DNA of 64,000 nt, from assembly GCA_050950165.1 (NCBI GenBank), contig JBMNHC010000001.1:453744-517743 (forward strand). The letters run 5' to 3'. Below the pieces are notes generated by a model that was not told the DNA's origin, ran no database searches, and saw only the letters and a list, made by a program, of their open reading frames with translations. The DNA is from Candidatus Dojkabacteria bacterium (GTDB lineage: Bacteria > Patescibacteriota > Dojkabacteria > SC72). Shown in pieces: positions 5,809-35,384 of the stretch. Position numbers and translations under genes: made by a program. The first letter of the stretch is position 1. Each line of letters begins with the position of its first letter.

Positions 5809-7824
5809 ATGGAGATAAAGGTAGATAAAAAATTAAAAGAGAAAAGACTTACTCCTTCATCATCTAAATGGAGTGGTAGTAAAGGTGTTCCTTCTTTAAA
5901 AGAGAGATTTAAGAGAGAGTTAAAGAGAGGGTCTAAGATTTTAGATGTTTCTCCTTGGAACTTAATTTATGCATTTTTACTCTTCTTTGTTTTCTTCGGA
6001 ATATTAATTAGTAGTATTGCTCAGTTGCAGATAATTGAGGGGAGTGAGATGGCTATGAGGTCTGAGAGAAATAAGGTGAGGATTAGTAAGGTAATGGCTC
6101 CTAGAGGAATTATCTTTGATGCAGATGGTACTAAATTGGTAGAAAACCTTCCCTCTATGAACCTTTACCTTTCGCTAGAGCCATATTTGGATAAGAAGGG
6201 GGAGCTAGATAGTGAGAAATTAGAAGAGTCGCTAGATACCCTCGGGGGTATACTTGGAGATAGCTGGAAGAAGAGCGGATCTAGTGAAAACGAGGTGTAT
6301 GATTCTCTTCTGGATAGAGTATATTCAATATATTCATCATCACCATACTTTAGAAAGATATTAATTGCTCAAGATTTGGATAATGAGATGGTTATTAAAA
6401 TTAAAGCTAGATTTACAGATATATTAGGTTTGGATATAGATAATGGGAATAAAAGAAGATATATATATGATGAATACTTTACTCATATCTTAGGGTATAC
6501 AGGAGAAGCATCTAAAGCAGATATTGAGAAGTTCGAGTCAGTAGAGAGTGGAGATATTGTAGGTAAAACAGGAGTAGAGAGATATTACAATGAGCAGTTT
6601 CAAGGTGAGCATGGACAATTAGCACAAGAGATAGATGTTTTTGGTAGATCTGTTTCTGAAAAACCTTACCTTCTTAAAGAGGTTGTTGCAGGTAAAAATC
6701 TCTACCTTACTGTTAAGAAGGATATGCAGACTAAATTGTATGACCTTCTTGCAGAAGCTGTAGGAAGAGTAGGTGCTGCGGGAGGAGCAGGAGTTATTGA
6801 AGATGTTAGAAATGGAGAGATATTAGCCATTGTTAGCTATCCTGGATATGATGGTAATCTCTTTGTAGGTGGAATATCTCAAAGTGATTACTCTAGTTTG
6901 TTAAACAACAAACTTAATCCACTACTTAATCGTGCTCTTGCTGCTCAGATACCTCCAGGTTCTACATTCAAAACATTAGTTGCTGTAGGTGGATTGGATG
7001 CTAAGGTGATAACAAGAAACACAATATATGTTAGTAGAGCAGGATATTCCTTTTCTAATGGAGCACCATTTCAAGAGTTTAGAAAAAGTGTATACGGTCC
7101 TTTAAATGTAGTAGATGCACTCTCTGTTTCATCTAATATATATTTCTGTGAGCTAATTAGAAAATGGGATATGAATGAGTTAGTCCCATATCTAGAGAAA
7201 TTTGGTATAGGGAAGTATACAGGTATAGATATTCCTGGAGAAGCTCCTGGTAGAATGCCCTCTCCAGAAAACAAAATTAAGTTAGCTAATACAAGTAGTC
7301 CGTGGTTAGAACCGATATGGTATCCGGAAGGAGACTCCTGTAATGCAGTAATTGGACAAGGTATTACTCTTGTAACTCCAATTCAAATGTCTAACTGGAT
7401 GGCAGCAATAGCTAACGGTGGTACTTTGTATACCCCTCATGTAGCAAAGAAATTTGTAGATGAGAAAGGCTTTGAATATCCAGTAGAACCTACAGTTCTT
7501 TCCAATACGGGCGTATCCAAAGAAGTATTAGATATCGTCAAAAGAGGTATGTGGGGTACAGTAAATAGCTCAAGAGGAATAGTGAGTTCTCTTTCAAATG
7601 TGGGTACCTCTGTTGCAGCAAAAACAGGAACTGCAGAGTTCGGTAAGGTTAACGAGAAAGGTGTGTATGAAGATACTCACGCTTGGGTTGCAGGTTTCTT
7701 CCCGTATGAAAATCCTAGATATTCATTCTCAATATTTTTAGAAGACGGAGGTATGAGCAGTAACGCTTCCAAAGTAATGAGAGAGATGATTATCTGGATG
7801 GTAAACAACGGATTTGTTGATTAA
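5809..7824 (+). CDS. mrdA: penicillin-binding protein 2 (peptidoglycan D,D-transpeptidase)
   Basis: N-terminal TM; SxxK (PGSTFKT), SxN (SVSSNIYF) and KTG (AAKTGTAEF) transpeptidase motifs; position after mreBCD. Confidence 0.85.
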   Translation: MEIKVDKKLKEKRLTPSSSKWSGSKGVPSLKERFKRELKRGSKILDVSPWNLIYAFLLFFVFFGILISSIAQLQIIEGSEMAMRSERNKVRISKVMAPRGIIFDADGTKLVENLPSMNLYLSLEPYLDKKGELDSEKLEESLDTLGGILGDSWKKSGSSENEVYDSLLDRVYSIYSSSPYFRKILIAQDLDNEMVIKIKARFTDILGLDIDNGNKRRYIYDEYFTHILGYTGEASKADIEKFESVESGDIVGKTGVERYYNEQFQGEHGQLAQEIDVFGRSVSEKPYLLKEVVAGKNLYLTVKKDMQTKLYDLLAEAVGRVGAAGGAGVIEDVRNGEILAIVSYPGYDGNLFVGGISQSDYSSLLNNKLNPLLNRALAAQIPPGSTFKTLVAVGGLDAKVITRNTIYVSRAGYSFSNGAPFQEFRKSVYGPLNVVDALSVSSNIYFCELIRKWDMNELVPYLEKFGIGKYTGIDIPGEAPGRMPSPENKIKLANTSSPWLEPIWYPEGDSCNAVIGQGITLVTPIQMSNWMAAIANGGTLYTPHVAKKFVDEKGFEYPVEPTVLSNTGVSKEVLDIVKRGMWGTVNSSRGIVSSLSNVGTSVAAKTGTAEFGKVNEKGVYEDTHAWVAGFFPYENPRYSFSIFLEDGGMSSNASKVMREMIIWMVNNGFVD

Positions 7825-7884
7825 GAAAAATGTAAGAAAAAGATAGTAGTATATATATGAGAGGGTTTGACATATATTTAAACA

Positions 7885-10005
7885 TTGTGTATTTTTAGCT
7901 TCTGTATGGCAAAAGTTAAAAACAATTACAAAAATTTACTGATAGTGGAGTCTCCTGCTAAGGCAAAGACCATTAGTAAATTCTTGGGAGATGATTACAA
8001 GGTGATGGCGACTGTAGGGCATGTAATTGATCTGCCTAAGAGTAAACTAGGTGTTGATGTAGAGAATGAATATGAGCCTCAGTTTGAAACTATCTACGGT
8101 AAAGGAAAGATATTGAAGGAGCTTAAGGCCGCACTTCCTAAAGATGGGCAGGTATATCTAGCTATGGACCCAGACAGAGAGGGAGAAGCTATTGCGTGGC
8201 ATGTTAAGAATTTTCTTAAAGTTCCTAATGTAAAGAGGGCTACCTTCCATGAGATTACCAAAGAAGCTGTTCAAGAAGCTCTAGAGTCTAGCTCTGTTGT
8301 AAATGAGAATTTAGTTGAAGCTCAGAAGGCAAGAAGGGTGTTGGATAGGTTGGTTGGATACAAGATATCTGAACTACTTTGGAAGAAGATCTGGTACGGT
8401 CTTTCAGCTGGTCGAGTACAGTCTACTGCTTTGCGATTAATTGTAGAGAGAGAAGAAGAGAGAGAGAGTTTTGTTCCAAAAGAGTACTGGGAGTTTTTTG
8501 TTGATGTAGTAAAAGATAGTGAGAAGTTAAGAATTAAACTAGTTAAAAAAGATTCTAAAAAATATATTCCTAAAACAGGTAAAGAAGTAAATACTCTAAA
8601 AGAACTGTTAGGAGAGAGTAGGTATGTAGTTGTGGATATTACTAAGAAGGAGCAGAAGAAGAATCCATATCCTCCATATACAACATCTACACTACAACAG
8701 TCAGCAAACAATGTACTAGGGTACTCTGCAAAAAGAACAATGGCATTAGCTCAAACCCTCTATCAAGCAGGATATATTACATATATGAGAACAGATTCTG
8801 TGTCGCTTTCTAAGAAAGCCATTGGTCAAATACGAGATGTGATATTAAAAAAATACGGTAGGGAGTATCTGCCAGAATCAGCTAGATATTACAGAACCAA
8901 AAGTAAGAATGCCCAAGAGGCTCATGAGGCCATTAGACCTACAGATTTCAATATCTCTAAGAGTGAAATAGAGAGAAAGTTTGGTACCTTTGAAGCAAAG
9001 ATATATGACTTGATATGGAAAAGAGCAATATCGTCTCAGATGAATGAAAAGAGAGTAGAGAGTCTAGTTGTATATTTTGAACCAGAGGAAAAATTAAAAA
9101 ATATATATACATTCTCAGTAACAGCACAGAAAGTTCTCTTTGATGGATACAGAGTTGTATATGGAAGTAGTAAAGAGGATGAGCTGTTGCAAGAGATTAG
9201 TGGTATTGCTAAAGGAGAGATATTTGATAGGGAAAGATTTGTTACAGAACAAAAATTTACACAACCTAGGGCTAGATATACTGAGGCTTCTCTTGTTAAG
9301 AAATTAGAGGAGTTGGGTATTGGAAGACCTTCTACATATGCCACTATCATCAGTACAATACAGGCTCGTGACTATGTTTCTAAAGATGGAAAATATCTCT
9401 TCCCTAATGATATCGGTAGGGTAGTTACACATTTCCTTAAAAGTAATTTTAAGGACTTGGTAGATTACAAATATACTGCCTCTGTAGAAGAGAGGTTGGA
9501 TAAAATAGCGAGTGGTACTGTTAAATATGTTCCTTTCATTGATAAGGAGTACAAGCCTTTAATGGCAAGTATAGAGAGTGCAGATAGTAATGTTAAAAAA
9601 GAAGATGTAGTGATATTAGAGAAATCTAATGAGAAATGTACTGAGTGTGGCTCAGACATGGTAGTAAAATTAGGAAGGTATGGGAAGTTTCTTAGCTGTA
9701 GTAAATTTCCAGAGTGCAAAGGTATGAAAGATCTAAGTGGAGGAGAGGAGAATTTAGATTTTAAGAAATATGCAAGACCTAAAGAGTGTCCTGAGTGTAG
9801 TTCAGCATTGGTACTCAAAAACAGTAAATACGGTAAGTTCTGGGCATGTGAGAGATATCCAGAGTGTAAGGGGACACTCCCTCTTCTTCTGAATGAAGTT
9901 TGTCCAGAGTGTGGTAAGAATCTTGTAGAGAGAAGAAGTAAATGGGGTAAGACTTTCGTGGGGTGTAGTGGATATCCAGGATGTAAATATATTAAAAAGA
10001 GGTAA
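7885..10005 (+). CDS. topA: DNA topoisomerase I with C-terminal zinc-ribbon repeats
   Basis: Toprim LLIVESPAKAKTI, active-site region ITYMRTDS, and three C-terminal CxxC...CxxC zinc ribbons (CTECGS..., CPECSS..., CPECGK...). Confidence 0.9.
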   Translation: MCIFSFCMAKVKNNYKNLLIVESPAKAKTISKFLGDDYKVMATVGHVIDLPKSKLGVDVENEYEPQFETIYGKGKILKELKAALPKDGQVYLAMDPDREGEAIAWHVKNFLKVPNVKRATFHEITKEAVQEALESSSVVNENLVEAQKARRVLDRLVGYKISELLWKKIWYGLSAGRVQSTALRLIVEREEERESFVPKEYWEFFVDVVKDSEKLRIKLVKKDSKKYIPKTGKEVNTLKELLGESRYVVVDITKKEQKKNPYPPYTTSTLQQSANNVLGYSAKRTMALAQTLYQAGYITYMRTDSVSLSKKAIGQIRDVILKKYGREYLPESARYYRTKSKNAQEAHEAIRPTDFNISKSEIERKFGTFEAKIYDLIWKRAISSQMNEKRVESLVVYFEPEEKLKNIYTFSVTAQKVLFDGYRVVYGSSKEDELLQEISGIAKGEIFDRERFVTEQKFTQPRARYTEASLVKKLEELGIGRPSTYATIISTIQARDYVSKDGKYLFPNDIGRVVTHFLKSNFKDLVDYKYTASVEERLDKIASGTVKYVPFIDKEYKPLMASIESADSNVKKEDVVILEKSNEKCTECGSDMVVKLGRYGKFLSCSKFPECKGMKDLSGGEENLDFKKYARPKECPECSSALVLKNSKYGKFWACERYPECKGTLPLLLNEVCPECGKNLVERRSKWGKTFVGCSGYPGCKYIKKR

Positions 10006-15163: not shown

Positions 15164-15333
15164 TATATCTTTTAAGTAAGAATATTTATTTACTGCTCTA
15201 ATGGCTATAAGATTAAATAAAACAACAAAGATAATACTTGCAATAGTAATATTAATTCTTTCTGTTGCTCTAGGTTATTTAATATGGAGAATTAATCAAC
15301 CAGAGAGATTAGATCCTACAGATAGTGATGCGG
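15143..15333 (+). repeat. 5' conserved unit of the tandem surface-protein cassette (copy 1). It overlaps the last 7 codons of rseP, the leader, and the signal-anchor coding region.
   Basis: 191 nt with a single mismatch to 17002..17192. Confidence 0.85.
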
Positions 15334-28027: not shown

Positions 28028-28927
28028 ATGAATACACAGTCTACATCTACAATATCAATAGAGAGGGATGAAGAGCAGAGAGTAGGTAAGGTACTTCTTT
28101 CTAATGGTTGGTCTGAAGAGGTAGATAGAAATGAGTATGTAAAAGCAAGGTACAGGAGTCCTTTAGGTTCTGTTGCAATACTGTATAGTAGTGGTAAGTT
28201 GGTATTTCAGGGTAAGCAAGATTTTAATTCTTTAATATTAGATATTAAACAGGAATCTTCAGAAGAGAGTTCTTCTTTTGTAGACCATATTGGAGTAGAT
28301 GAGGTAGGTAAAGGAGATTACTTTGGTCCTCTAGTTGTAGTTAGTTGTTTTGTAGATAGAGAGTTTGAAAAAAGAATCTCTCTTTTAGGGTTTGGAGATT
28401 CTAAGAGGTTTTCGGATAGGAAGATATTAGAACTTTTTAAAGAGATAGAGGAGTATCCTTACTACTTTAGCTCTGTAGTTGTACCTGCTGAGTACAACAG
28501 ATTAGTACTGGAGTATGGTAATGTTGCTGTACTACTTGCAAAGCAGCATAGTATTGTAATAGAGAAGGGGCTTTCTAAATTAAAATTAGATGGAGTGGAG
28601 TGTAAGCGAGTGGTAATAGATCAGTTTTCTTCGTCAAAAGATAGGGTAAGAAAAGAGTTAGGAGAGTTGGGTAGTAGGGTAGAGTTAATTCAATTTCACA
28701 AAGGTGAGTCAGATCTAGCTGTAGCTGCAGCTTCTATAATAGCGAGAGCCATATTTTTAAAAGAGTGGGAGAAGATGAATGAGAGATATGATTTAGTATT
28801 TCCTAAGGGTGCAACTAGTGTAGTAGAGTTTGGTAAGGAGTTTGTATCTAAGTATGGTGAAGATGAGCTTAGGAATGTAGCAAAGATTGGATTTAGAACA
28901 ACAGATGAGATATTAAAACTCTTTTAG
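28028..28927 (+). CDS. rnhC: ribonuclease HIII-like (RNase HII-family catalytic domain with N-terminal extra domain)
   Basis: HIGVDEVGKGDYFGPLVVV catalytic DEVG(R/K)G motif preceded by an ~85-aa N-domain containing ...SGKLVFQGK, typical of RNase HIII. Confidence 0.7.
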   Translation: MNTQSTSTISIERDEEQRVGKVLLSNGWSEEVDRNEYVKARYRSPLGSVAILYSSGKLVFQGKQDFNSLILDIKQESSEESSSFVDHIGVDEVGKGDYFGPLVVVSCFVDREFEKRISLLGFGDSKRFSDRKILELFKEIEEYPYYFSSVVVPAEYNRLVLEYGNVAVLLAKQHSIVIEKGLSKLKLDGVECKRVVIDQFSSSKDRVRKELGELGSRVELIQFHKGESDLAVAAASIIARAIFLKEWEKMNERYDLVFPKGATSVVEFGKEFVSKYGEDELRNVAKIGFRTTDEILKLF

Positions 28928-29805
28928 TTTTTCTTCTTATCTTCTTTCAAGGATTTAATAAGTAGTACTGTAGTTATGGATATTGATAGTAGGATTATTA
29001 ATTCTACTGTATAGCTATTTATTGTTGTTTCTGTATTTATACTTGTACTATCTAGTCCACTAGAGAAGTTACCGATAGCTACTCTCTTGTAGAGTATGTC
29101 TGAAATATGCCACTGTTTTACAGTTAATTCTTCTTGTAAGCTATCTTTAGGGTAAAGTTTTTTAGAGTCTCTGTTTATAAAAAGGTATTTAGGTTTGTAG
29201 TTTCCCTTACTATTAAACACTTCTATTCTTCCAATAGGGGCTAATACATAGTTAGAGTTATTCTGTATGGTATATTTAATTTTTAGTGGAGAGATGAACG
29301 GTATCCCTTTCTGAACGACATCTATCTTTGCTGTAAAGTCTGATGTAGTAATACCTTTAACTTGGTCATCTCTATCTACAATGTGTAGTACTACTAGTTG
29401 TGATACAGCCTTATTTATATACACGCTATCCTTCTCTGTTACCTCAGAGAGCACTAATATATTGAAGTAGGTTCCTTTTTCTAAGTTCTCAACAGGATAT
29501 ATTTCATAAGGTATTTCTTTTTTACTGTTTGCTTTAACAACAAATGTATCTGTATCTACCTTTAGAAAGATATTTTTACTATCTTTAATAATTTCATCAT
29601 CTTTATAGTTATAGTCATTTGTACTTAAGAGTATCTCAATATCTTTATCTTGAGTATTTTCGATAATAACGGAGCTTAGTTTTCTCTCTCCTTGTGATAG
29701 AGAGAGTTCATTTACTGCAGGAAAGAGAGTAGTAGCATGTACAGAAGATATACCCAGAAGGGTATAAAGGAATATTGATATACCGATTGTTTTGATTAGT
29801 TTCAT
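28924..29805 (-). CDS. surface-cluster protein 4: signal peptide + Ig-like ectodomain + C-terminal TM anchor (hypothetical)
   Basis: Signal peptide MKLIKTIGISIFLYTLLGISSVHA. C-terminal LIILLSISITTVLLIKSLKEDKKKN. Last gene of the 4-gene minus-strand operon. Confidence 0.5.
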   Translation of the reverse strand: MKLIKTIGISIFLYTLLGISSVHATTLFPAVNELSLSQGERKLSSVIIENTQDKDIEILLSTNDYNYKDDEIIKDSKNIFLKVDTDTFVVKANSKKEIPYEIYPVENLEKGTYFNILVLSEVTEKDSVYINKAVSQLVVLHIVDRDDQVKGITTSDFTAKIDVVQKGIPFISPLKIKYTIQNNSNYVLAPIGRIEVFNSKGNYKPKYLFINRDSKKLYPKDSLQEELTVKQWHISDILYKRVAIGNFSSGLDSTSINTETTINSYTVELIILLSISITTVLLIKSLKEDKKKN

Positions 29806-30764
29806 TTCTTTCTCATTCTCCTCTTACTAGTTCTTACTATTATAGCAGTAAGAAGTATGAGAAGAATAGCAAGGATAAGTTTCCATGGTATTATCCAGAA
29901 TGTGGTTTCTTCTGTTAATACAGCAAACCCAGGTTGGAAACTTCTGTATGTGACAAAGAGTTTAGCTTTAAGAGGACCCAATGCTATCTTCTTTGATGGG
30001 GAAAGATATCCTTGTTGACTCCAGTTGTCTATGTAATTACCGAGGTTATCTCTTAGTAAGCTCTGTCTATTTCTATTAAAGGGAACTCTAGCTACTTCCT
30101 GCTTGAAGATGTTTTCTATAACTATCTCACCTGCAGGGGTAATATGTGTATCTCCTAAGTTTTTAATCTGTGTTATGAGGTCTACATCTACTTTCTCATA
30201 TGTCTTTTTATCTGTAACAAATCTTAGTAGCTCTGCACTCTCTACAAACTCATCTCCTACTTGTAAGAGGATAGGGGTTCCTGCTGCTAAGTTTGTATAG
30301 GTTACAGTTCCCTGTTGTTGTGGTGCTGATTGTGATATTAAAAATATCTGAGTATTGTACTCTCCATTTGTAATATCTAGCGGTACATTAATAGTATATT
30401 TTAACTTTGTATTTTTATTCGGTTCTAAAAATAGAGATTCTTTATCAATTGTAACCCACTTTGAAGCAGAGTAGAGAGCTTTACTATCTTCCTCTTCAGT
30501 TAATATTACTGCTGTTCCTGGTTGATTCTCTATCTGTTTAAATGATCTAACATATATGTTGTATGTATCTGCACTCTGAGATAGGTTCCAAAAGACTAGT
30601 TCTTCTGAATATGTTCCTCCTGGTTTTACTTTTAGTACTTTGTAAGTAGGAGAGACACCGATAGAAAGAGGACTCTGTGCAAAAGTAGGCGTTAGGCCTA
30701 AACAGAGTAAAAGTATGGGCAGTATTAATATTTTATTATATTCCTTTAAGCGTTTTAGTATCAT
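29802..30764 (-). CDS. surface-cluster protein 3: signal peptide + PapD/Ig-like N-domain + C-terminal TM anchor with poly-basic tail (hypothetical)
   Basis: Signal peptide ...LLCLGLTPTFAQS. SIGVSPTYKVLKVKPGGTYSEELVFWNLS resembles a chaperone/Ig-fold first strand. C-terminal WKLILAILLILLTAIIVRTSKRRMRKK. Confidence 0.5.
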   Translation of the reverse strand: MILKRLKEYNKILILPILLLCLGLTPTFAQSPLSIGVSPTYKVLKVKPGGTYSEELVFWNLSQSADTYNIYVRSFKQIENQPGTAVILTEEEDSKALYSASKWVTIDKESLFLEPNKNTKLKYTINVPLDITNGEYNTQIFLISQSAPQQQGTVTYTNLAAGTPILLQVGDEFVESAELLRFVTDKKTYEKVDVDLITQIKNLGDTHITPAGEIVIENIFKQEVARVPFNRNRQSLLRDNLGNYIDNWSQQGYLSPSKKIALGPLKAKLFVTYRSFQPGFAVLTEETTFWIIPWKLILAILLILLTAIIVRTSKRRMRKK

Positions 30765-30774
30765 TATTTAACTA

Positions 30775-31857
30775 TTAGTAGTAACCACCACATATGAAGG
30801 TGATTGTTTCTTGGTATGAACCTGCAACAGCTGATGCCCCAGCTCTTGCTCCGTATGTTATTGTTGCACTCTCAGCAGAAGCCTGAGCTCCATTTTGAGA
30901 AAGTATTAACTTTGCAGCAGAAGAGGTTCTATCTATTGTTCCAAATGTTCCAAGTGTACTGTCAGAGAAAGATGCAGGTACTACTGCACCAGTAGGTTGA
31001 GAAACTGTAATTCCAAATCCTTCACTTCCAGCAACAGTCAAGTCTATTGTATCGTTAGGGCCAGAGGGTATTAAATATGTAGTAGCAGAACTTTTCCAAA
31101 GACCTGCATCTCCAGATGTTCCATTCCCTGTACCGTAGACAGCCCAGTAGTATCCACTAGTGGCTGTAGTTGAGATTGAGTTTGTTGCTGTTGCGTAGTT
31201 ACCACCAGGATAGAGGGTACCTAGATTAACAGCATTTCCTGTTATTGAACATCCTACACTAGGAGCCGAAGATACTATAGCAGATACTACTACTTGATCA
31301 CTTGTTAGCAATTGGATCTTAAATGTCATTGAATCTGCTGTAGTTCCTTGGAATGCTGTGACGATAACATCATGAACACCAGCTGCACTGTTTGTACCAA
31401 GAACTCCTAAATTACCTGCAATCTTTACGCCGTATGTAGTTCCTCCAGTTAAAGCAGTCAAACCAGTAATCGTTATTGTATCAGATGTTCCAGTTGAACC
31501 TTGGCTACATGTAGCAGAGAGAGTTCCAGGAAGAGCTGCATCTATTGCCCATCCTGTAGAAGCTAAATCAACTTCAGAAGATGAAACACCTGTAGCTGTT
31601 AAGGATCCTGCAGTTCTACACCATGTGGTATCTCCTGCATCTGGAAATTCGATAGTTATTGTTCCTCCTGTTGGAATAGTGGTAGTGGTGTTGATAGCTA
31701 GAACATATTCGATACCTGTTGCAATATTTGTTTGTATCCTATTCATGTATAGGTATACATTTGCTAATGTTGCAGCGTGCGAAGAGTAATGGAGAAGAAG
31801 TGCTGATACAACAGCAATAAAGATGGTAGGTATTACAACTCTAATTATATTCTTCAC
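30775..31857 (-). CDS. surface-cluster protein 2: secreted Thr/Gly/Ser/Ala-rich beta-rich protein (hypothetical)
   Basis: Signal peptide ...LLHYSSHAATLA. About 45% T+G+S+A. No TM. Ends ...ICGGYY. Confidence 0.5.
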   Translation of the reverse strand: MKNIIRVVIPTIFIAVVSALLLHYSSHAATLANVYLYMNRIQTNIATGIEYVLAINTTTTIPTGGTITIEFPDAGDTTWCRTAGSLTATGVSSSEVDLASTGWAIDAALPGTLSATCSQGSTGTSDTITITGLTALTGGTTYGVKIAGNLGVLGTNSAAGVHDVIVTAFQGTTADSMTFKIQLLTSDQVVVSAIVSSAPSVGCSITGNAVNLGTLYPGGNYATATNSISTTATSGYYWAVYGTGNGTSGDAGLWKSSATTYLIPSGPNDTIDLTVAGSEGFGITVSQPTGAVVPASFSDSTLGTFGTIDRTSSAAKLILSQNGAQASAESATITYGARAGASAVAGSYQETITFICGGYY

Positions 31858-31943
31858 TTTTTAGGCAGATTAAATTTATGATTAAAATAGAAATTCTATC
31901 TACAGCTTATATACAGAATTTTATAATGTCAAGGGGTTTCAAT

Positions 31944-33143
31944 CTAATATCTAGGTACCAAAACTAAGGTTATGGATTCTTGATAATCTGAAGCAGGTGT
32001 GTATGAAGTTCCTGGTTTTGCAATAACCTTTAAAGCCATTCTACCTGAGACTATGGGAGCACTACCATCATATATTTTTTTAGGAGATGTACTTATTTCT
32101 CCTACTGAGTTAATAGTACCTGAGTAGTTTGTAGTGGCAGATATTACACCGAAGAGTGGAGAACTGTTGTCATATGCAATATATTCACTTTGAAGACCGA
32201 AGCCAGATTGTACTTGATCTAAGTTAGCAGTAGCAGACACAATCTTTTCTAAAGTAGTAGGGCTGTACAATCCTCCGTACAATCCTTTTCCCATTATCGC
32301 AAATCCTCCTTCTGAACTTGTTTCAGCGTCCATCCATATTCTGTCTCCAGCTGTAATAGCTGCAGATCCTCCTATCAATTCATATGCTCCTGTGAATGAA
32401 ATATTGTAAGGGGGAGAACTTTCTGCTGTTTGTCCACTACTTCCTGCAATATCAATATCGAAAAAGAGAGAACCTACAGCTGTAGTAGCAGAGCTTACTG
32501 GTCCTGCCTCTGTTTGAGTAAAATCTCCTTTAAGAGCAAATATCTTAATGTAGTAAGTTTTACTTGCTTCTAATCCTTGAATATTGAATACCTCTGTTTC
32601 CCAGTCTTCCTTTGTCATGAAATCAGAGATGTTGTGTGTACTTGCACTCTCTGGCATAAAGGTAGATGCATCAATATATCTAATATCTGATACAAAATTG
32701 TCCAAAGAAATCATTAACGCATAAAGGGTGTCTGTGGGGTTTCCTTGAGTATTAATTTCAAATCTTGCCTTGTTGTAGCATCCTCCTGTACCACATATTG
32801 CTACCATACCACCACTACTTAACTCAGTAGGTCCAGTGGTACAACTAGAAGATCCTGAAGTGGTAGTTTCAAAACATGATGCTATTGGAACAGCAGGTAA
32901 GAATGCTACCTCAGGGCTTGTTCCTAGTTTGTAAGATGTAGAATATGTTCTTGGATTACTAGATATCATTCCTACACCAAGTAGGGCAGAGTAGTTTCCA
33001 CTAGCACTCTCTACAATTCCTCCTCCTTGGGTTGTAGCTCCCACTATCTTAAAGTTTGTAGAGTCTAGCTCTTCAGCAACGACCTTCATAGGCAAGATTA
33101 AAAGAAGGAGTAGTGGAAGGAGTTTGAGGTTCTTAATATTCAT
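31944..33143 (-). CDS. surface-cluster protein 1: secreted Ser/Thr/Gly-rich protein (hypothetical)
   Basis: Signal peptide MNIKNLKLLPLLLLLILPMKVVA. No TM. Ends ...LVLVPRY. First gene of the operon. Confidence 0.5.
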   Translation of the reverse strand: MNIKNLKLLPLLLLLILPMKVVAEELDSTNFKIVGATTQGGGIVESASGNYSALLGVGMISSNPRTYSTSYKLGTSPEVAFLPAVPIASCFETTTSGSSSCTTGPTELSSGGMVAICGTGGCYNKARFEINTQGNPTDTLYALMISLDNFVSDIRYIDASTFMPESASTHNISDFMTKEDWETEVFNIQGLEASKTYYIKIFALKGDFTQTEAGPVSSATTAVGSLFFDIDIAGSSGQTAESSPPYNISFTGAYELIGGSAAITAGDRIWMDAETSSEGGFAIMGKGLYGGLYSPTTLEKIVSATANLDQVQSGFGLQSEYIAYDNSSPLFGVISATTNYSGTINSVGEISTSPKKIYDGSAPIVSGRMALKVIAKPGTSYTPASDYQESITLVLVPRY

Positions 33144-33224
33144 ATTAAAATGATATTGGAGATATTACTGGTAGTCAAATGAGAGAAAAAAGGTATAAGG
33201 CGTGATATAATTGGGGACTTTGTT

Positions 33225-33311
33225 GGAGAGATGACAGAGTGGTCGAATGTGACGGTCTTGAAAACCGTTGTACGAGTCTTCGTACCGTGGGTTCGAATCC
33301 CACTCTCTCCG
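33225..33311 (+). tRNA. tRNA-Ser (anticodon TGA), long variable arm
   Basis: GGAGAGA acceptor stem, anticodon stem ACGGT/ACCGT with loop CTTGAAA (anticodon TGA), long variable arm, GGGTTCGAATCCC T-arm. Confidence 0.8.
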
Positions 33312-33339
33312 TTTTAATAACTTTTGTATCTCTCTAGAT

Positions 33340-34179
33340 ATGTCTCAGAAGGGTAGGGATAAAGAACAGAGTATGTTTAATGGATTAAACATACCTGATA
33401 GAGTTAGTATTGATGAATTTGTTGAGAAGTTAGTATCAAGATTAAGTGGATCGTTTGAGAAAGAGATTAAGAGACAGATCGCTAGATTAACAGTGGAGTA
33501 CAAGAGGGATAAGCAGGATACAGTAAATACAGGTATTACAGCTAGGGCAGAAGAGAGAGCAAAAGAGTGGATATGTCCTAGAATTCCTAGTTGGGTTAAC
33601 TCTGACCATCTAACAGTACTGGGTCTTGTTGCTGCATTTATCATAGTAGCTGGTTTCATCTTAGGGTTTAATAACAGAATATATCTTCTTCTAGTTGTAT
33701 TAGGTTTGTTTCTTAATTGGTTTGGAGATTCATTTGATGGTAGTTTAGCTAGATACAGAAAAAAGACTAGACCTAACTACGGCTACTATATAGATCATAT
33801 GATAGATGCAATTGTAGTAATGATTCTTGCAATAGGGTTGGGTATATCAGGTTTTGCTAGAATAGATGTTGCACTACTGTTTGCTCTTGTATATTTGGGA
33901 TTAATGATACATGTAGAGCTAGTAACATATGTACAGAATACTTTTAAGTACTCTTTCGGTGTAGTAGGACCTACTGAGATGAGAATAGTAGGGGTTTTCA
34001 TTACAATATATATGTACTTTGCACCTATAAAGTACTACTTTGTACAAGGTTATCAAATCTCTCAATATGATATTGCAATATTGGCTCTTTCCATCGCTAT
34101 GTTTGTTGTTCTCATTATTAATATCCTAAAAAAAGGTATTGAGCTTGATAGGATGGATAGGAAAAGGTGGAAGAGTTAA
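33340..34179 (+). CDS. CDP-alcohol phosphatidyltransferase family protein
   Basis: DSFDGSLARYRKKTRPNYGYYIDHMIDAI matches D-G-x2-A-R-x8-G-x3-D-x3-D. Multiple TM helices. The ORF-track start (33268) lies inside tRNA-Ser, so it is trimmed to the Met at 33340. Confidence 0.75.
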   Translation: MSQKGRDKEQSMFNGLNIPDRVSIDEFVEKLVSRLSGSFEKEIKRQIARLTVEYKRDKQDTVNTGITARAEERAKEWICPRIPSWVNSDHLTVLGLVAAFIIVAGFILGFNNRIYLLLVVLGLFLNWFGDSFDGSLARYRKKTRPNYGYYIDHMIDAIVVMILAIGLGISGFARIDVALLFALVYLGLMIHVELVTYVQNTFKYSFGVVGPTEMRIVGVFITIYMYFAPIKYYFVQGYQISQYDIAILALSIAMFVVLIINILKKGIELDRMDRKRWKS

Positions 34180-34238: not shown

Positions 34239-35384
34239 ATGAGGTATATACTTTTTCTCTTTTTACTACTTCTGTTTCCATCTTTTACTTACGCTGATGA
34301 TTTCCATGAGAGTGGAGATTCCTTTGTAAATGATTTCAGAGATGCACTAGGGTATGGGTATCGAACTTTACCTTTGCAAGGCAAATGCCCTATGTGTGTA
34401 GAGTTTAATCTAGAAGATGTTAAGGGTAGTAGTGTTGAATACATATTAAACAATGTAGGGCTTTTTGATATTACAAGTAGAGATCCAAAGTTTGGATTAA
34501 TACGTAATCCTCAGAGATATACATCGTTAGATCTTCCACCTTTTGCAAATGCTTCTTTCATATATTGGTATCTAAATGAAGCAGATCATAGTGTACAGAT
34601 AGAAAAGATTAAGGTATTTCTTTCTAGATATGATAGTAGTTTAGGAGATTTAAGAAATGTTTTGTTTGTAAATGGTCATTTTGAAGAGATACCCACAAGG
34701 GTATTGTTCGATATATACCCAAGAGCAGGAATTGTTAAAGAGTACGAAGGTTTAGGGATAGTGGGGCAAGGAAAAGGAGGATCTTTAATTCTAGATTCTC
34801 TGTTTGTTAAACCAACTGTATATTTTAGTCATTGGGAGCTATCTGTATCTAACAAGAAAGGATATATTCGTGTATATGTAAAGAACAGCTCTGATTACTT
34901 AGAGAGAAAAATTACATATTCTCACCAAGAATATTCTTCTACTAGAGATTTTCTTCCTAATGAGACATATGTATATGAGTATGAGGTTGATATTGAAGAG
35001 AATAGTTCTGTAGGTTTTGCATCTATTCATAATCCGAATAGCAGAAAAGAGTGTATTGGTTTTGGAGAACATCTAGAATCCAACTTTATTGGAGAATCTG
35101 CAGTTGTTGTGGGAGTTAGAAAAGAGGGAGAGATTCTTTATCCATATGTGTCTTCACGACTTAAACCTTGGGGAGAGGCATTTTGTATTAACAGATTAGC
35201 TCATACAGTTCACTCTATGGTAATTAGATATGCAGAAGAGGAAGAGGTTAAGGGTGTAGAGAGTACAGAGAGTATAGATATTGTATCATTGCCTAAAACA
35301 GCAAAATTATCAATTTTACTATCTACACTACCTTTACTTGTTGTAGTTAGTGGAGTTTGGTACTATCTAAAAAGGGAAATATAA
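34239..35384 (+). CDS. secreted, C-terminally anchored hypothetical protein
   Basis: Signal peptide MRYILFLFLLLLFPSFTYA. C-terminal ...SLPKTAKLSILLSTLPLLVVVSGVWYYLKREI (LPKTA followed by TM and a basic tail). Confidence 0.45.
   Translation: MRYILFLFLLLLFPSFTYADDFHESGDSFVNDFRDALGYGYRTLPLQGKCPMCVEFNLEDVKGSSVEYILNNVGLFDITSRDPKFGLIRNPQRYTSLDLPPFANASFIYWYLNEADHSVQIEKIKVFLSRYDSSLGDLRNVLFVNGHFEEIPTRVLFDIYPRAGIVKEYEGLGIVGQGKGGSLILDSLFVKPTVYFSHWELSVSNKKGYIRVYVKNSSDYLERKITYSHQEYSSTRDFLPNETYVYEYEVDIEENSSVGFASIHNPNSRKECIGFGEHLESNFIGESAVVVGVRKEGEILYPYVSSRLKPWGEAFCINRLAHTVHSMVIRYAEEEEVKGVESTESIDIVSLPKTAKLSILLSTLPLLVVVSGVWYYLKREI

Follow-up and report, generated by a model that had tools for sequence, protein, structure and literature searches.

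A four-gene locus of Dojkabacteria probably encodes a minimal, divergent Pam-type pilus

The locus is located on the minus strand of a 64,000-nucleotide stretch of DNA from Candidatus Dojkabacteria bacterium (the window) and comprises four open reading frames; its neighbours are genes for tRNA-Ser, an RNase H-like protein and CysS:

28924-29805, minus strand: ORF4, 293 aa
29802-30764, minus strand: ORF3, 320 aa
30775-31857, minus strand: ORF2, 360 aa, GTG start
31944-33143, minus strand: ORF1, 399 aa

ORF4 and ORF3 overlap by 4 nt, ORF3 and ORF2 are separated by 10 nt, and a gap of 86 nt lies between ORF2 and ORF1. In the NCBI annotation all four proteins are "hypothetical", and all of them stay below the curated thresholds of NCBIfam and Pfam. 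Each has a single hydrophobic segment at the N-terminus, with an A-x-A-like site behind it. Ser, Thr, Gly and Ala together make up a fraction of 0.41 of ORF1 and 0.51 of ORF2, compared with 0.25 +/- 0.06 in a set of 47 long ORFs from the window, and both proteins end in aromatic residues (...VPRY and ...GGYY, respectively). A motif scan of ORF1 and ORF2 revealed no W-x-L, LPXTG or prepilin motif, and PapD, usher or fimbrial Pfam matches were not found for any of the four proteins. An earlier note on this DNA had described the same coordinates and spacing, signal peptides on all four proteins, the biased composition, and the absence of WxL motif, usher and prepilin motif; all of this agrees with the present analysis. 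That note had proposed synteny across related genomes as a check, and the order of the four genes proved constant: every Dojkabacteria-type locus that was recovered from species-representative genomes shows it. Across these syntenic loci, identities are 44-80% for ORF1, 41-71% for ORF2, 42-79% for ORF3 and 24-64% for ORF4. Since the gene order recurs in this way, the cluster is no chance arrangement.

Promoter-like sites are situated upstream of ORF1 and in the gap between ORF1 and ORF2:

33150..33178, minus strand: P1 promoter-like site upstream of ORF1 (TTGACT, 17 nt, TATCAT), found by consensus scan
31906..31932, minus strand: P2 promoter-like site in the ORF1-ORF2 gap (TTGACA at 31932-31927, 15 nt, TATAAG at 31911-31906)
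31864..31868, minus strand: conserved box CTGCC, located 7 nt ahead of the GTG start codon of ORF2

The -10 box of P1 ends 6 nt ahead of the ORF1 ATG, suggesting a leaderless or very short-leader transcript. Among 55 sequences (the window and 54 Dojkabacteria loci), the TTGAC of P1 is found at equal distance in 50, and TTGAC[ATC] of P2 is present in 54, with a -10-like hexamer 15-18 nt downstream in 52. Due to its spacer of 15 nt, P2 was missed by the consensus scan. CTGC occurs at most 16 nt from the ORF2 start in 49 of the 55 sequences; a similar box, ACTGC(T/C), is found ahead of four further genes in the window. P1 and P2 are putative promoters, and because of the second conserved site in the 86-nt gap, the cluster probably consists of two nested transcription units and not of the single four-gene operon assumed earlier.

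ORF2 has homologues among the pilins of the Pam pilus, a structure described recently in ultra-small CPR bacteria and known from Candidatus Mycosynbacter amalyticus (bioRxiv 10.64898/2026.03.03.709456). The Pam pilus is composed of the pilins PamA, PamB and PamE, the tip protein PamT, the chaperones PamC and PamD and the anchor PamR (bioRxiv 10.64898/2026.03.03.709456; NCBIfam NF058581, NF058579). PamA and PamB fold into a nine-strand N-domain, a linker and a C-domain, conservation among Pam pilins is highest in the linker and the last strand, and the pilins have been solved as filaments by cryo-EM, while an anchoring role is given to PamR, an RbmA-like transmembrane (TM) protein (bioRxiv 10.64898/2026.03.03.709456). 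ORF2 shows the following features:

31774..31857, minus strand: signal peptide, residues 1-28, ...SHA/ATL (model helix 2-20; Kyte-Doolittle segment 1-26)
31303..31773, minus strand: N-domain, nine strands between residues 33 and 184 in the AF2 model, with invariant columns
31249..31302, minus strand: inter-domain linker TSDQVVVSAIVSSAPSVG, residues 186-203, proposed donor strand
30778..31248, minus strand: C-terminal pilin domain, residues 204-360, with invariant C203 and C356 and the final strand AGSYQETITFICGGYY

The AlphaFold2 (AF2) monomer model (pLDDT 81.7) consists of the nine-strand N-domain, a disordered linker (pLDDT <50 for residues 189-199) and a C-terminal β-domain. Invariant residues include A28 at the end of the signal peptide and D187, V189, A193, V195 and V201 in the linker. 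Across 67 superfamily members, conservation in 12-residue windows peaks at the linker (0.654 versus a mean of 0.431); linker and last strand rank as the two best-conserved windows. A search of 1.84 billion proteins with the ORF2 family profile yielded only 190 matches (cluster representatives), among them the Pam pilin P0285 (E=2e-34). With 143.1 bits, P0285 is far above the cut-off of 55 bits for NF058581 (CPR_Pam_pilin_C, 'Pam pilus system pilin subunit'), and ORF2 itself matches it over the full length with 33% identity (BLASTP, E=5e-28). Moreover, 31 of the 43 distant full-length relatives match NF058581 (best 143 bits), and hhalign aligns ORF2 with these 43 distant matches at 100% probability (E=3e-61). 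Foldseek returned generic tandem-Ig proteins only, with TM scores of 0.27 or less. ORF2 is homologous to Pam pilins and, judged from its sequence, is a Pam-type two-domain shaft pilin which would polymerise; by analogy with the Pam cryo-EM structures, its linker may insert into the neighbouring subunit.

A related C-terminal domain is present in ORF1:

33075..33143, minus strand: ORF1 signal peptide, residues 1-23, ...VVA/EELD (Kyte-Doolittle segment 3-26; site judged by eye)
31947..32504, minus strand: pilin domain at the C-terminus of ORF1, residues 214-399, which would accept the donor strand of ORF2

The profile of this domain matches Pam-type pilin C-domains with E=4.6e-21 and 7e-14 (best shuffled control 0.019), and a profile of non-Dojkabacteria Pam pilins matches ORF1 (E=1.6e-11) in the C-domain region only, skipping the linker. 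Unlike the hydrophobic linker of ORF2, that of ORF1 is polar. The repeat S-x-N-[FY] occurs three times in the N-terminal half, which also has four invariant Cys and an FN3-like domain, with weak fn3 matches in 26 of 44 orthologs; in some orthologs ConA-like lectin or pentaxin inserts are found within this half. In other CPR loci, the operon position of ORF1 is occupied by PamT-like proteins or by giant adhesins with a C-terminal pilin domain. Similarity of the N-terminal half to PamT-like proteins did not reach significance. The sole direct Pam match, of PamT to ORF1 with 22 bits, was lost upon removal of the signal peptide, and none of the 44 orthologs matches. ORF1 is a probable tip adhesin subunit: with an acceptor C-domain, a polar, non-donating linker and an FN3-like half, it would start the fibre and form the adhesin at its distal tip.

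ORF3 and ORF4 both end in a membrane-spanning segment with a basic tail, as the earlier note had described:

29808..29885, minus strand: ORF3 C-terminal TM helix, helix 294-319 (Kyte-Doolittle segment 286-315), followed by RTSKRRMRKK
28942..29016, minus strand: ORF4 C-terminal TM segment, Kyte-Doolittle segment 264-288, followed by KEDKKKN

In the AF2 model of ORF3 (pLDDT 80.8), helices 2-22 and 294-319 enclose two β-sandwich domains (residues 35-144 and 162-291) with a low-confidence loop between them (148-159). The top Foldseek match is the Enterococcus WxLIP (DUF916/DUF3324 + TM; 9i25_C, E=2.6e-12, TM score 0.50), followed by the chaperone-usher chaperones CfaA, CsuC and DraB (TM score about 0.5); RbmA is also among the best matches (4kkp, E=4e-9). 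ORF3 is best regarded as a membrane-anchored, presumably chaperone-like protein. ORF4 is a more divergent paralog: hhalign relates the two families with 94% probability (E=1.1e-7, 216 columns); a profile search of ORF4 found neither a consistent Pfam signal nor a chaperone-family signal, and the protein may be either a second membrane-anchored chaperone or an anchor/terminator. An ORF3-like gene follows the P0285 pilin gene (E=1e-16), and in all CPR loci examined the pilins occur together with one to three such genes. That the four products are unrelated, ordinary exported proteins (S-layer proteins, solute-binding proteins or enzymes) which are merely neighbours would fit the lack of any curated family match, but is highly improbable: synteny of the four genes is strict throughout the class, both ORF2 and the C-domain of ORF1 have Pam pilins as homologues, ORF3 is a paralog of ORF4, and neither Pfam/NCBIfam profiles of the four proteins nor Foldseek searches of ORF2 and ORF3 gave enzyme or solute-binding-protein matches.

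The structural matches of ORF3 raise the question of a non-filamentous complex, in which ORF3 and ORF4 hold ORF1 and ORF2 non-covalently as single adhesins. WxL clusters of Firmicutes combine small and long WxL proteins with WxLIP (DUF916 + DUF3324 + TM) (PMC10599100; PDB 9i25, 9i1y), and two secreted proteins next to a TM-anchored two-Ig protein resemble this arrangement (PMC10599100). WxLIP of E. faecium, including its complex with a long WxL protein (9i25_C), is the closest structure to ORF3, and PF06030 (DUF916, WxLIP_PGBD) gives weak but consistent, sub-threshold matches in 44 of 45 ORF3 orthologs. However, ORF1 and ORF2 possess neither WxL domain nor W-x-L motif, the cluster shows no DUF3324 sequence matches (ORF3 orthologs searched) and contains no small LPXTG protein. 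In addition, ORF2 is a full-length homologue of pilins with relatives solved as filaments, and the linker, its most conserved segment, would hardly be so conserved if it had no intermolecular role. Such a complex is therefore considered very unlikely.

A fibre that self-assembles by donor strands, like TasA or archaeal cannulae, with ORF3 and ORF4 as anchors, adhesins or RbmA/PamR-type matrix linkers in place of chaperones, is unlikely as well. Donor-strand fibres without chaperones exist, RbmA is found among the matches of ORF3, the RbmA-like PamR is the Pam anchor, and ORF4 gives no chaperone-family signal. Yet by target-normalised TM score WxLIP and the chaperone-usher chaperones fit ORF3 better (about 0.5) than RbmA does (0.34), and ORF3-like genes consistently occur with pilins. 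Moreover, as known from chaperone-usher systems, exported subunits with an open hydrophobic groove normally need capping.

The Pam pilin homology of ORF2 and of the C-domain of ORF1, the architecture of the domains, the constant gene order and the pattern of conserved segments indicate that the locus probably encodes a minimal, divergent Pam-type pilus, a donor-strand-exchange system specific to CPR. The cell-surface assembly module proposed in the earlier note is thus supported, and the resemblance it saw to WxL/DUF916/DUF3324 clusters and chaperone-usher systems is real. However, the structure is not an undescribed one: the Pam-type locus of Dojkabacteria was previously unannotated, but its kind was already described in 2026. 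Furthermore, ORF1 and ORF2 are two-domain Ig-like β-sandwich subunits and not β-solenoids.

In the proposed Pam-type mechanism, Sec would export all four proteins. The hydrophobic linker of ORF2 would serve as donor strand in the incomplete Ig-like C-domain of the preceding subunit, giving rise to a linear fibre. ORF3 and ORF4, two-domain proteins that resemble PapD and WxLIP and are anchored in the cytoplasmic membrane through their C-terminal helix, would shield the open groove of subunits that have just been exported, pass them on at the membrane surface by exchanging strands, with neither usher nor ATP, and also tether the fibre base. Transcription from P1 before ORF1 and P2 before ORF2 would supply shaft pilin in excess over tip. 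The product would be a thin attachment fibre, probably built without a secretion pore.

The cluster differs from Gram-negative chaperone-usher pili (archaic Csu, class 5 CFA/I) in lacking usher and outer membrane, in its membrane-anchored putative chaperone, and in the position of the proposed donor strand, which follows an extra N-domain as an internal linker instead of extending the N-terminus. TLP-1a/b fibrils, found in pond water by CryoSeek (PMC11494351; PDB 9ikj, 9ikk), are tubular fibres of a single-domain protomer with its N-terminal strand donated to protomer n+4 (PMC11494351); a sequence relationship to the cluster proteins is not detectable. WxLIP is predicted to insert a β-hairpin strand into its secreted partner (PMC10599100), the same kind of strand complementation as proposed here. 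The Pam system, in which filaments have been seen, comprises at least seven genes including three shaft pilins (PamA, PamB, PamE) and a single-domain tip of about 240 aa. The proposed Dojkabacteria system comprises four genes with one shaft pilin and a probable 399-aa tip with an FN3-like half and, in some species, a lectin; no filament has been seen in any Dojkabacteria. No PamR-like gene or terminator, PamE or ATP synthase neighbourhood was found among the window ORFs and Dojkabacteria loci, the Pam ATP synthase neighbourhood being replaced by the flanking genes named above, and the cluster proteins are too divergent for the curated Pam models. WxL proteins, to our knowledge, are not known to polymerise. 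The Pam pilus and the cluster are alike in being restricted to CPR, in carrying Sec signals on all components, in having neither usher nor ATPase, in chaperone-like proteins with a C-terminal TM helix, and in a pilin with paired Cys whose nine-strand N-domain is joined to an Ig-like C-domain by a conserved linker.

Re-calling of the open reading frames recovered four co-oriented genes at the positions and with the spacing claimed in an earlier note: an 86-nt gap between ORF1 and ORF2, a 10-nt gap between ORF2 and ORF3, and a 4-nt overlap of ORF3 and ORF4. The cluster and the genes upstream of it are:

31944–33143, minus strand: ORF1, 399 aa, probable tip adhesin
30775–31857, minus strand: ORF2, 360 aa, predicted shaft pilin
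29802–30764, minus strand: ORF3, 320 aa, putative membrane-anchored chaperone-like protein
28924–29805, minus strand: ORF4, 293 aa, putative membrane-anchored paralog of ORF3
33224–33312, plus strand: tRNA-Ser (anticodon UGA), 81 nt upstream of ORF1 on the opposite strand, bounding the locus
33268–34179, plus strand: CDP-alcohol phosphatidyltransferase, 303-aa mechanical ORF starting inside tRNA-Ser (N-terminus RGFESHSLR)
34239–35384, plus strand: secreted 381-aa protein with the C-terminus SLPKTAKLS, a hydrophobic stretch and KREI

Because the 303-aa ORF begins inside the tRNA gene, the true gene start is located further downstream. The 381-aa protein carries an LPXTG-like (LPKTA) sortase sorting signal and has no Pfam match; its gene is syntenic, most Dojkabacteria loci having it close to the pilus cluster.

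Each of the four proteins displays an N-terminal hydrophobic segment followed by an A-x-A-like cleavage site, in agreement with the signal peptides previously assigned to all of them, and in ORF3 and ORF4 a C-terminal hydrophobic segment precedes a basic tail. The Ser/Thr/Gly/Ala richness noticed in ORF1 and ORF2 also holds (41% and 51%, respectively, versus a window mean of 25 ± 6%). Both proteins terminate in aromatic residues, and neither contains a W-x-L, LPXTG or prepilin motif. A fifth gene is absent from the cluster, and the rest of the window yielded neither paralogs nor additional components. In the Candidatus Dojkabacteria (WS6) MAG, of which a 724-kb contig contains the window, all four genes are annotated by NCBI as hypothetical (MGI6423442-45), and none of the proteins reaches a curated Pfam or NCBIfam threshold.

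Homologs of ORF2 and ORF3 number in the hundreds and occur in CPR bacteria, mainly Dojkabacteria; the named ones are confined to Dojkabacteria/WS6, Woykebacteria, Parcubacteria, Moraniibacteriota or 'Patescibacteria'. A few record titles read Gammaproteobacteria or Nanoarchaeia, probably from mislabelled bins. Several fetched loci (L003–L005, L072, L075–L078 and others) likewise show CPR/Dojkabacteria-like synteny yet are titled 'uncultured Candidatus Saccharibacteria', 'Gammaproteobacteria' or 'Nanoarchaeia archaeon', and these contig titles are probably automated taxonomic mislabels of MAGs. Scanning species-representative genomes with an ORF3 profile gave 366 relatives, from which 80 loci were taken for comparison. 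The synteny check proposed in the earlier note turned out positive: all Dojkabacteria-type loci recovered among the 80 share the order ORF1-ORF2-ORF3-ORF4, followed by convergent RNase-H-like and CysS genes, with tRNA-Ser and the CDP-alcohol transferase flanking the cluster on the other side. Across these loci, ortholog identities range from 44 to 80% for ORF1, 41 to 71% for ORF2, 42 to 79% for ORF3 and 24 to 64% for ORF4.

A first pointer to the relevant literature was a weak match of ORF1 to the NCBIfam model PamT (E = 9e-5). This match covers mostly the signal peptide, and none of 44 orthologs matches once the signal peptide is removed; it is therefore not counted as evidence. The Pam pilus, described only in 2026 and in one cultivated Saccharimonadia parasite, is thought to make the first host contact (bioRxiv 10.64898/2026.03.03.709456). 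Cryo-EM structures have been reported for two pilins of Ca. Mycosynbacter amalyticus, PamA and PamB; in a Pam pilin an N-domain of nine strands is joined to a truncated Ig-like C-domain by a linker strand, which is donated. PamT forms the tip, PamC and PamD are PapD/FimC-like chaperones with a C-terminal TM helix, and PamR is an RbmA-like TM anchor with two FnIII domains; the system operates without an usher (bioRxiv 10.64898/2026.03.03.709456).

Profile comparisons indicate that ORF2 is a Pam-type pilin, homologous to pilins which pass the curated threshold. The family model itself, NF058581 (CPR_Pam_pilin_C, cut-off 55 bits), matches neither ORF2 nor ORF1 at E ≤ 1. An exhaustive search of 1.84 billion representatives with the ORF2-family profile yielded only 190 matches. 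The profile matches P0285, a Pam pilin scoring 143.1 bits on NF058581 against the cut-off of 55, at E = 2e-34, and in BLASTP this protein aligns with ORF2 end to end at 33% identity (E = 5e-28). Among 43 distant full-length matches, 31 match NF058581, the model named 'Pam pilus system pilin subunit', and the PamT model is matched by 8; hhalign relates the ORF2 family to these 43 proteins with 100% probability (E = 3e-61) and to the pilins of distant loci with 99.2% probability. In the reverse direction, a profile of non-Dojkabacteria pilins finds ORF2 at E = 9e-73. The proposal of an undescribed surface structure is consequently not upheld, given this homology of ORF2 to pilins described in 2026. 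Sequence searches of the PDB with single sequences and profiles (ORF1, ORF2, ORF3, distant pilins, PamT-like proteins) gave no match, the PDB copy evidently lacking PamA and PamB, and in a homolog search starting from P0285 all proteins found were unnamed or belonged to other CPR bacteria, the M. amalyticus operon not being among them.

The AlphaFold2 monomer model of ORF2 (pLDDT 81.7) comprises nine strands between residues 33 and 184 and a β-rich C-domain (residues 203–358), connected by a linker whose residues 189–199 have a pLDDT below 50. The predicted layout thus corresponds to the N-domain, linker and C-domain of Pam pilins. There, conservation peaks in the donated linker and at the site that binds it, and the corresponding segments rank highest in the ORF2 superfamily (67 sequences), with conservation values of 0.654 for residues 184–195 and 0.637 for residues 345–356 compared to a mean of 0.431. 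By analogy with Pam, ORF2 could form filaments by donor-strand exchange. One Dojkabacteria genome possesses two tandem shaft pilin genes (L050:5559–6674 and 6803–7930), 54–55% identical to ORF2, which recall the PamA/PamB pair. Four other matches, P0258 (2159 aa), P0251 (732 aa), P0253 (727 aa) and P0243 (689 aa), combine a full N-terminal pilin with a long C-terminal extension and could be fusions or products of gene-calling read-through.

The relation of ORF1 to the pilins is restricted to its C-terminal 186 residues, which match Pam-type pilin C-domains at E = 5e-21 and 7e-14 (best shuffled control 0.02) and, judged from these alignments, are homologous to them. The non-Dojkabacteria pilin profile also finds the ORF1 C-domain, skipping the linker region, and at the position of the hydrophobic linker of ORF2 the alignment places a Gly/Ser-rich polar segment. 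Significance is obtained only with the search confined to the C-domain; whole-length hhalign comparisons are weak (9% versus ORF2, 11% versus distant pilins, 3% versus PamT-like proteins). The N-terminal half contains three S-x-N-[FY] repeats and four invariant cysteines, and its only matches are weak ones to fn3, in 26 of 44 orthologs. A probable role as tip adhesin follows from the position of ORF1, its domain logic and the absence of a donor strand. PamT consists of a single truncated Ig-like domain without donor linker; ORF1 has the pilin C-domain, with the polar segment in place of the linker, and also a large additional N-half.

Six loci harbor a longer ORF1 of about 590–615 aa (L005:4959–6770, L036:210–1991, L053:4841–6661, L056:4800–6647, L060:1283–3043, and L070). 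In these orthologs a concanavalin-A-like lectin, Laminin_G_3 or pentaxin domain is inserted (E down to 7e-28, above Pfam thresholds), which suggests glycan-binding pilus tips that vary between species. Outside the Dojkabacteria-type loci, the position upstream of the pilin genes is taken in CPR bacteria by one of two protein types: PamT-like proteins of 228–256 aa, which share the N-terminal repeats of ORF1 (PamT E = 1e-10 to 1e-12), or giant adhesins whose length runs from about 1,000 to over 2,500 aa and which terminate in the pilin domain.

The model of ORF3 (pLDDT 80.8) displays two β-sandwich domains, a low-confidence loop (residues 148–159) and a TM helix (residues 294–319). Its best structural match is WxLIP of E. 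faecium, a DUF916/DUF3324 protein with a TM segment, including its complex with a long WxL protein (E = 2.6e-12, TM 0.50), followed by the chaperone-usher chaperones CfaA, CsuC and DraB (TM about 0.5); the match to RbmA is lower (TM 0.34). Of 45 ORF3 orthologs, 44 match PF06030 (DUF916/WxLIP_PGBD), all short of the gathering score (best E = 3.6e-6). Together with the structural matches, this bears out the resemblance to WxL/DUF916 clusters and chaperone-usher logic seen in the earlier note. An ORF3 profile found no match among PDB sequences. The ORF4 family, which has no consistent Pfam signal of its own, aligns with ORF3 in hhalign (94% probability, E = 1e-7) and represents a more divergent paralog with a C-terminal TM segment; PF11797 (DUF3324) is matched by a single ORF4 ortholog (E = 0.04). 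Each CPR locus examined has one to three ORF3-like genes 3' of the pilins, the neighbour of P0285 among them. From fold and context we infer that ORF3 and ORF4 act as chaperones and anchors. The fold of ORF3 and the paralogy of ORF4 fit PamC and PamD, as compared by description. ORF4 could also fill a PamR-like terminator or anchor role, yet it aligns with the chaperone-like ORF3. In three Woykebacteria-type loci (L073:8957–9562, L075:9014–9664, L079:2748–3356) the ORF3-like gene is followed by a gene for a protein of about 200 aa that combines an Ig-like domain with a TM helix at the C-terminus and may be a PamR-like anchor.

Three short conserved elements precede ORF1 or ORF2:

Promoter-like site P1, before ORF1: TTGACT, 17 nt, TATCAT; 6 nt between its end and the ATG of ORF1; retained in 50 of 55 sequences
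Promoter-like site P2, within the 86-nt ORF1-ORF2 gap: TTGACA, 15 nt, TATAAG; conserved in 54 of 55
31864–31868, minus strand: CTGC(C) box, present in 49 of 55 loci at 4–9 nt before the start of ORF2

Hits of a consensus promoter and terminator scan did not exceed those in shuffled sequence, and no terminator turned up at the operon end; the case for the promoters comes from conservation across species instead. The location of P1 suggests a leaderless transcript, and P2 would allow surplus synthesis of the shaft pilin. A lineage-specific motif for translation initiation or for 5' ends is one possible reading of the CTGC(C) box. Upstream of the window genes starting near 15201, 17060, 36925 and 56835 (plus strand) there is a similar ACTGC(T/C) box, and Shine-Dalgarno-like GGAGG is rare in the window (1 of 47).

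These results propose a function for four genes whose listed homologs bear no functional name, and extend the Pam-type system to a further CPR class, Dojkabacteria/WS6, in a strictly conserved and much smaller version. This small version narrows the essential parts to a tip protein, a single shaft pilin and a pair of anchored chaperone-like proteins. Lectin-bearing tips, present in some species, suggest that the receptors are host glycans.

With regard to other surface structures, type IV pilins carry a class III prepilin signal (G|F/M-T-L-I-E) and retain a hydrophobic helix, whereas ORF2 and ORF3 are modelled as all-β after a cleavable signal peptide. In sortase-assembled Gram-positive pili the pilins bear LPXTG and the gene cluster includes a pilus sortase; LP.T[GASN] occurs in none of ORF1–ORF4. 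Chaperone-usher systems employ an outer-membrane usher, for which the cluster has neither gene nor match, and soluble PapD-family chaperones, whereas ORF3 and ORF4 are membrane-anchored, the resemblance being structural only (ORF3) and the PapD-family models PF00345 and PF02753 unmatched. Motif and Pfam searches thus confirm that WxL motif, prepilin motif and usher are missing, as had been noted.

The WxLIP protein of WxL clusters, built of DUF916, DUF3324 and a TM helix, is the best structural match of ORF3, and the DUF916 sequence matches are sub-threshold. Their secreted partners carry a WxL domain with two W-x-L motifs, of which ORF1 and ORF2 have neither; the WxL domain (PF13731) had no Pfam match in ORF1, ORF2 or the 43 relatives, and membership of the pilins in the WxL or SCPU families was rejected on negative Pfam results. 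The modelled likeness of ORF3 to Firmicute WxLIP, a link absent from the Pam paper, suggests that the pili of CPR bacteria and the surface complexes of Gram-positive bacteria are connected in evolution. The Pam paper names neither Dojkabacteria nor WxL (bioRxiv 10.64898/2026.03.03.709456), and the literature searched contained no link of WxLIP to donor-strand assembly or to Pam. A further-reaching and rather doubtful reading is that Pam chaperones and WxLIP are true homologs. CPR Pam pili and WxL complexes would then be separate branches of a single ancient system by which bacteria with one membrane achieve strand complementation without an usher, and the strictly conserved four-gene Dojkabacteria cluster would be its minimal self-sufficient core. 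If true, this core would comprise a tip, a shaft and a pair of anchored chaperones but lack a terminator of its own.

The closest relative is the Pam system, to which the Dojkabacteria cluster appears homologous on sequence grounds and like which it is predicted, by analogy, to work. Compared to Pam, it is smaller, with four genes, one shaft pilin, a larger tip subunit and neither PamE nor a separate gene for PamR, and its proteins fall below every curated threshold. F1 ATP synthase genes are adjacent to the Woykebacteria-type loci L073 and L079, matching the neighbourhood given in the Pam paper (bioRxiv 10.64898/2026.03.03.709456), whereas the Dojkabacteria loci lie outside such a neighbourhood. 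The Pam-type pilus as such was already known; its divergent, minimal Dojkabacteria version is new.
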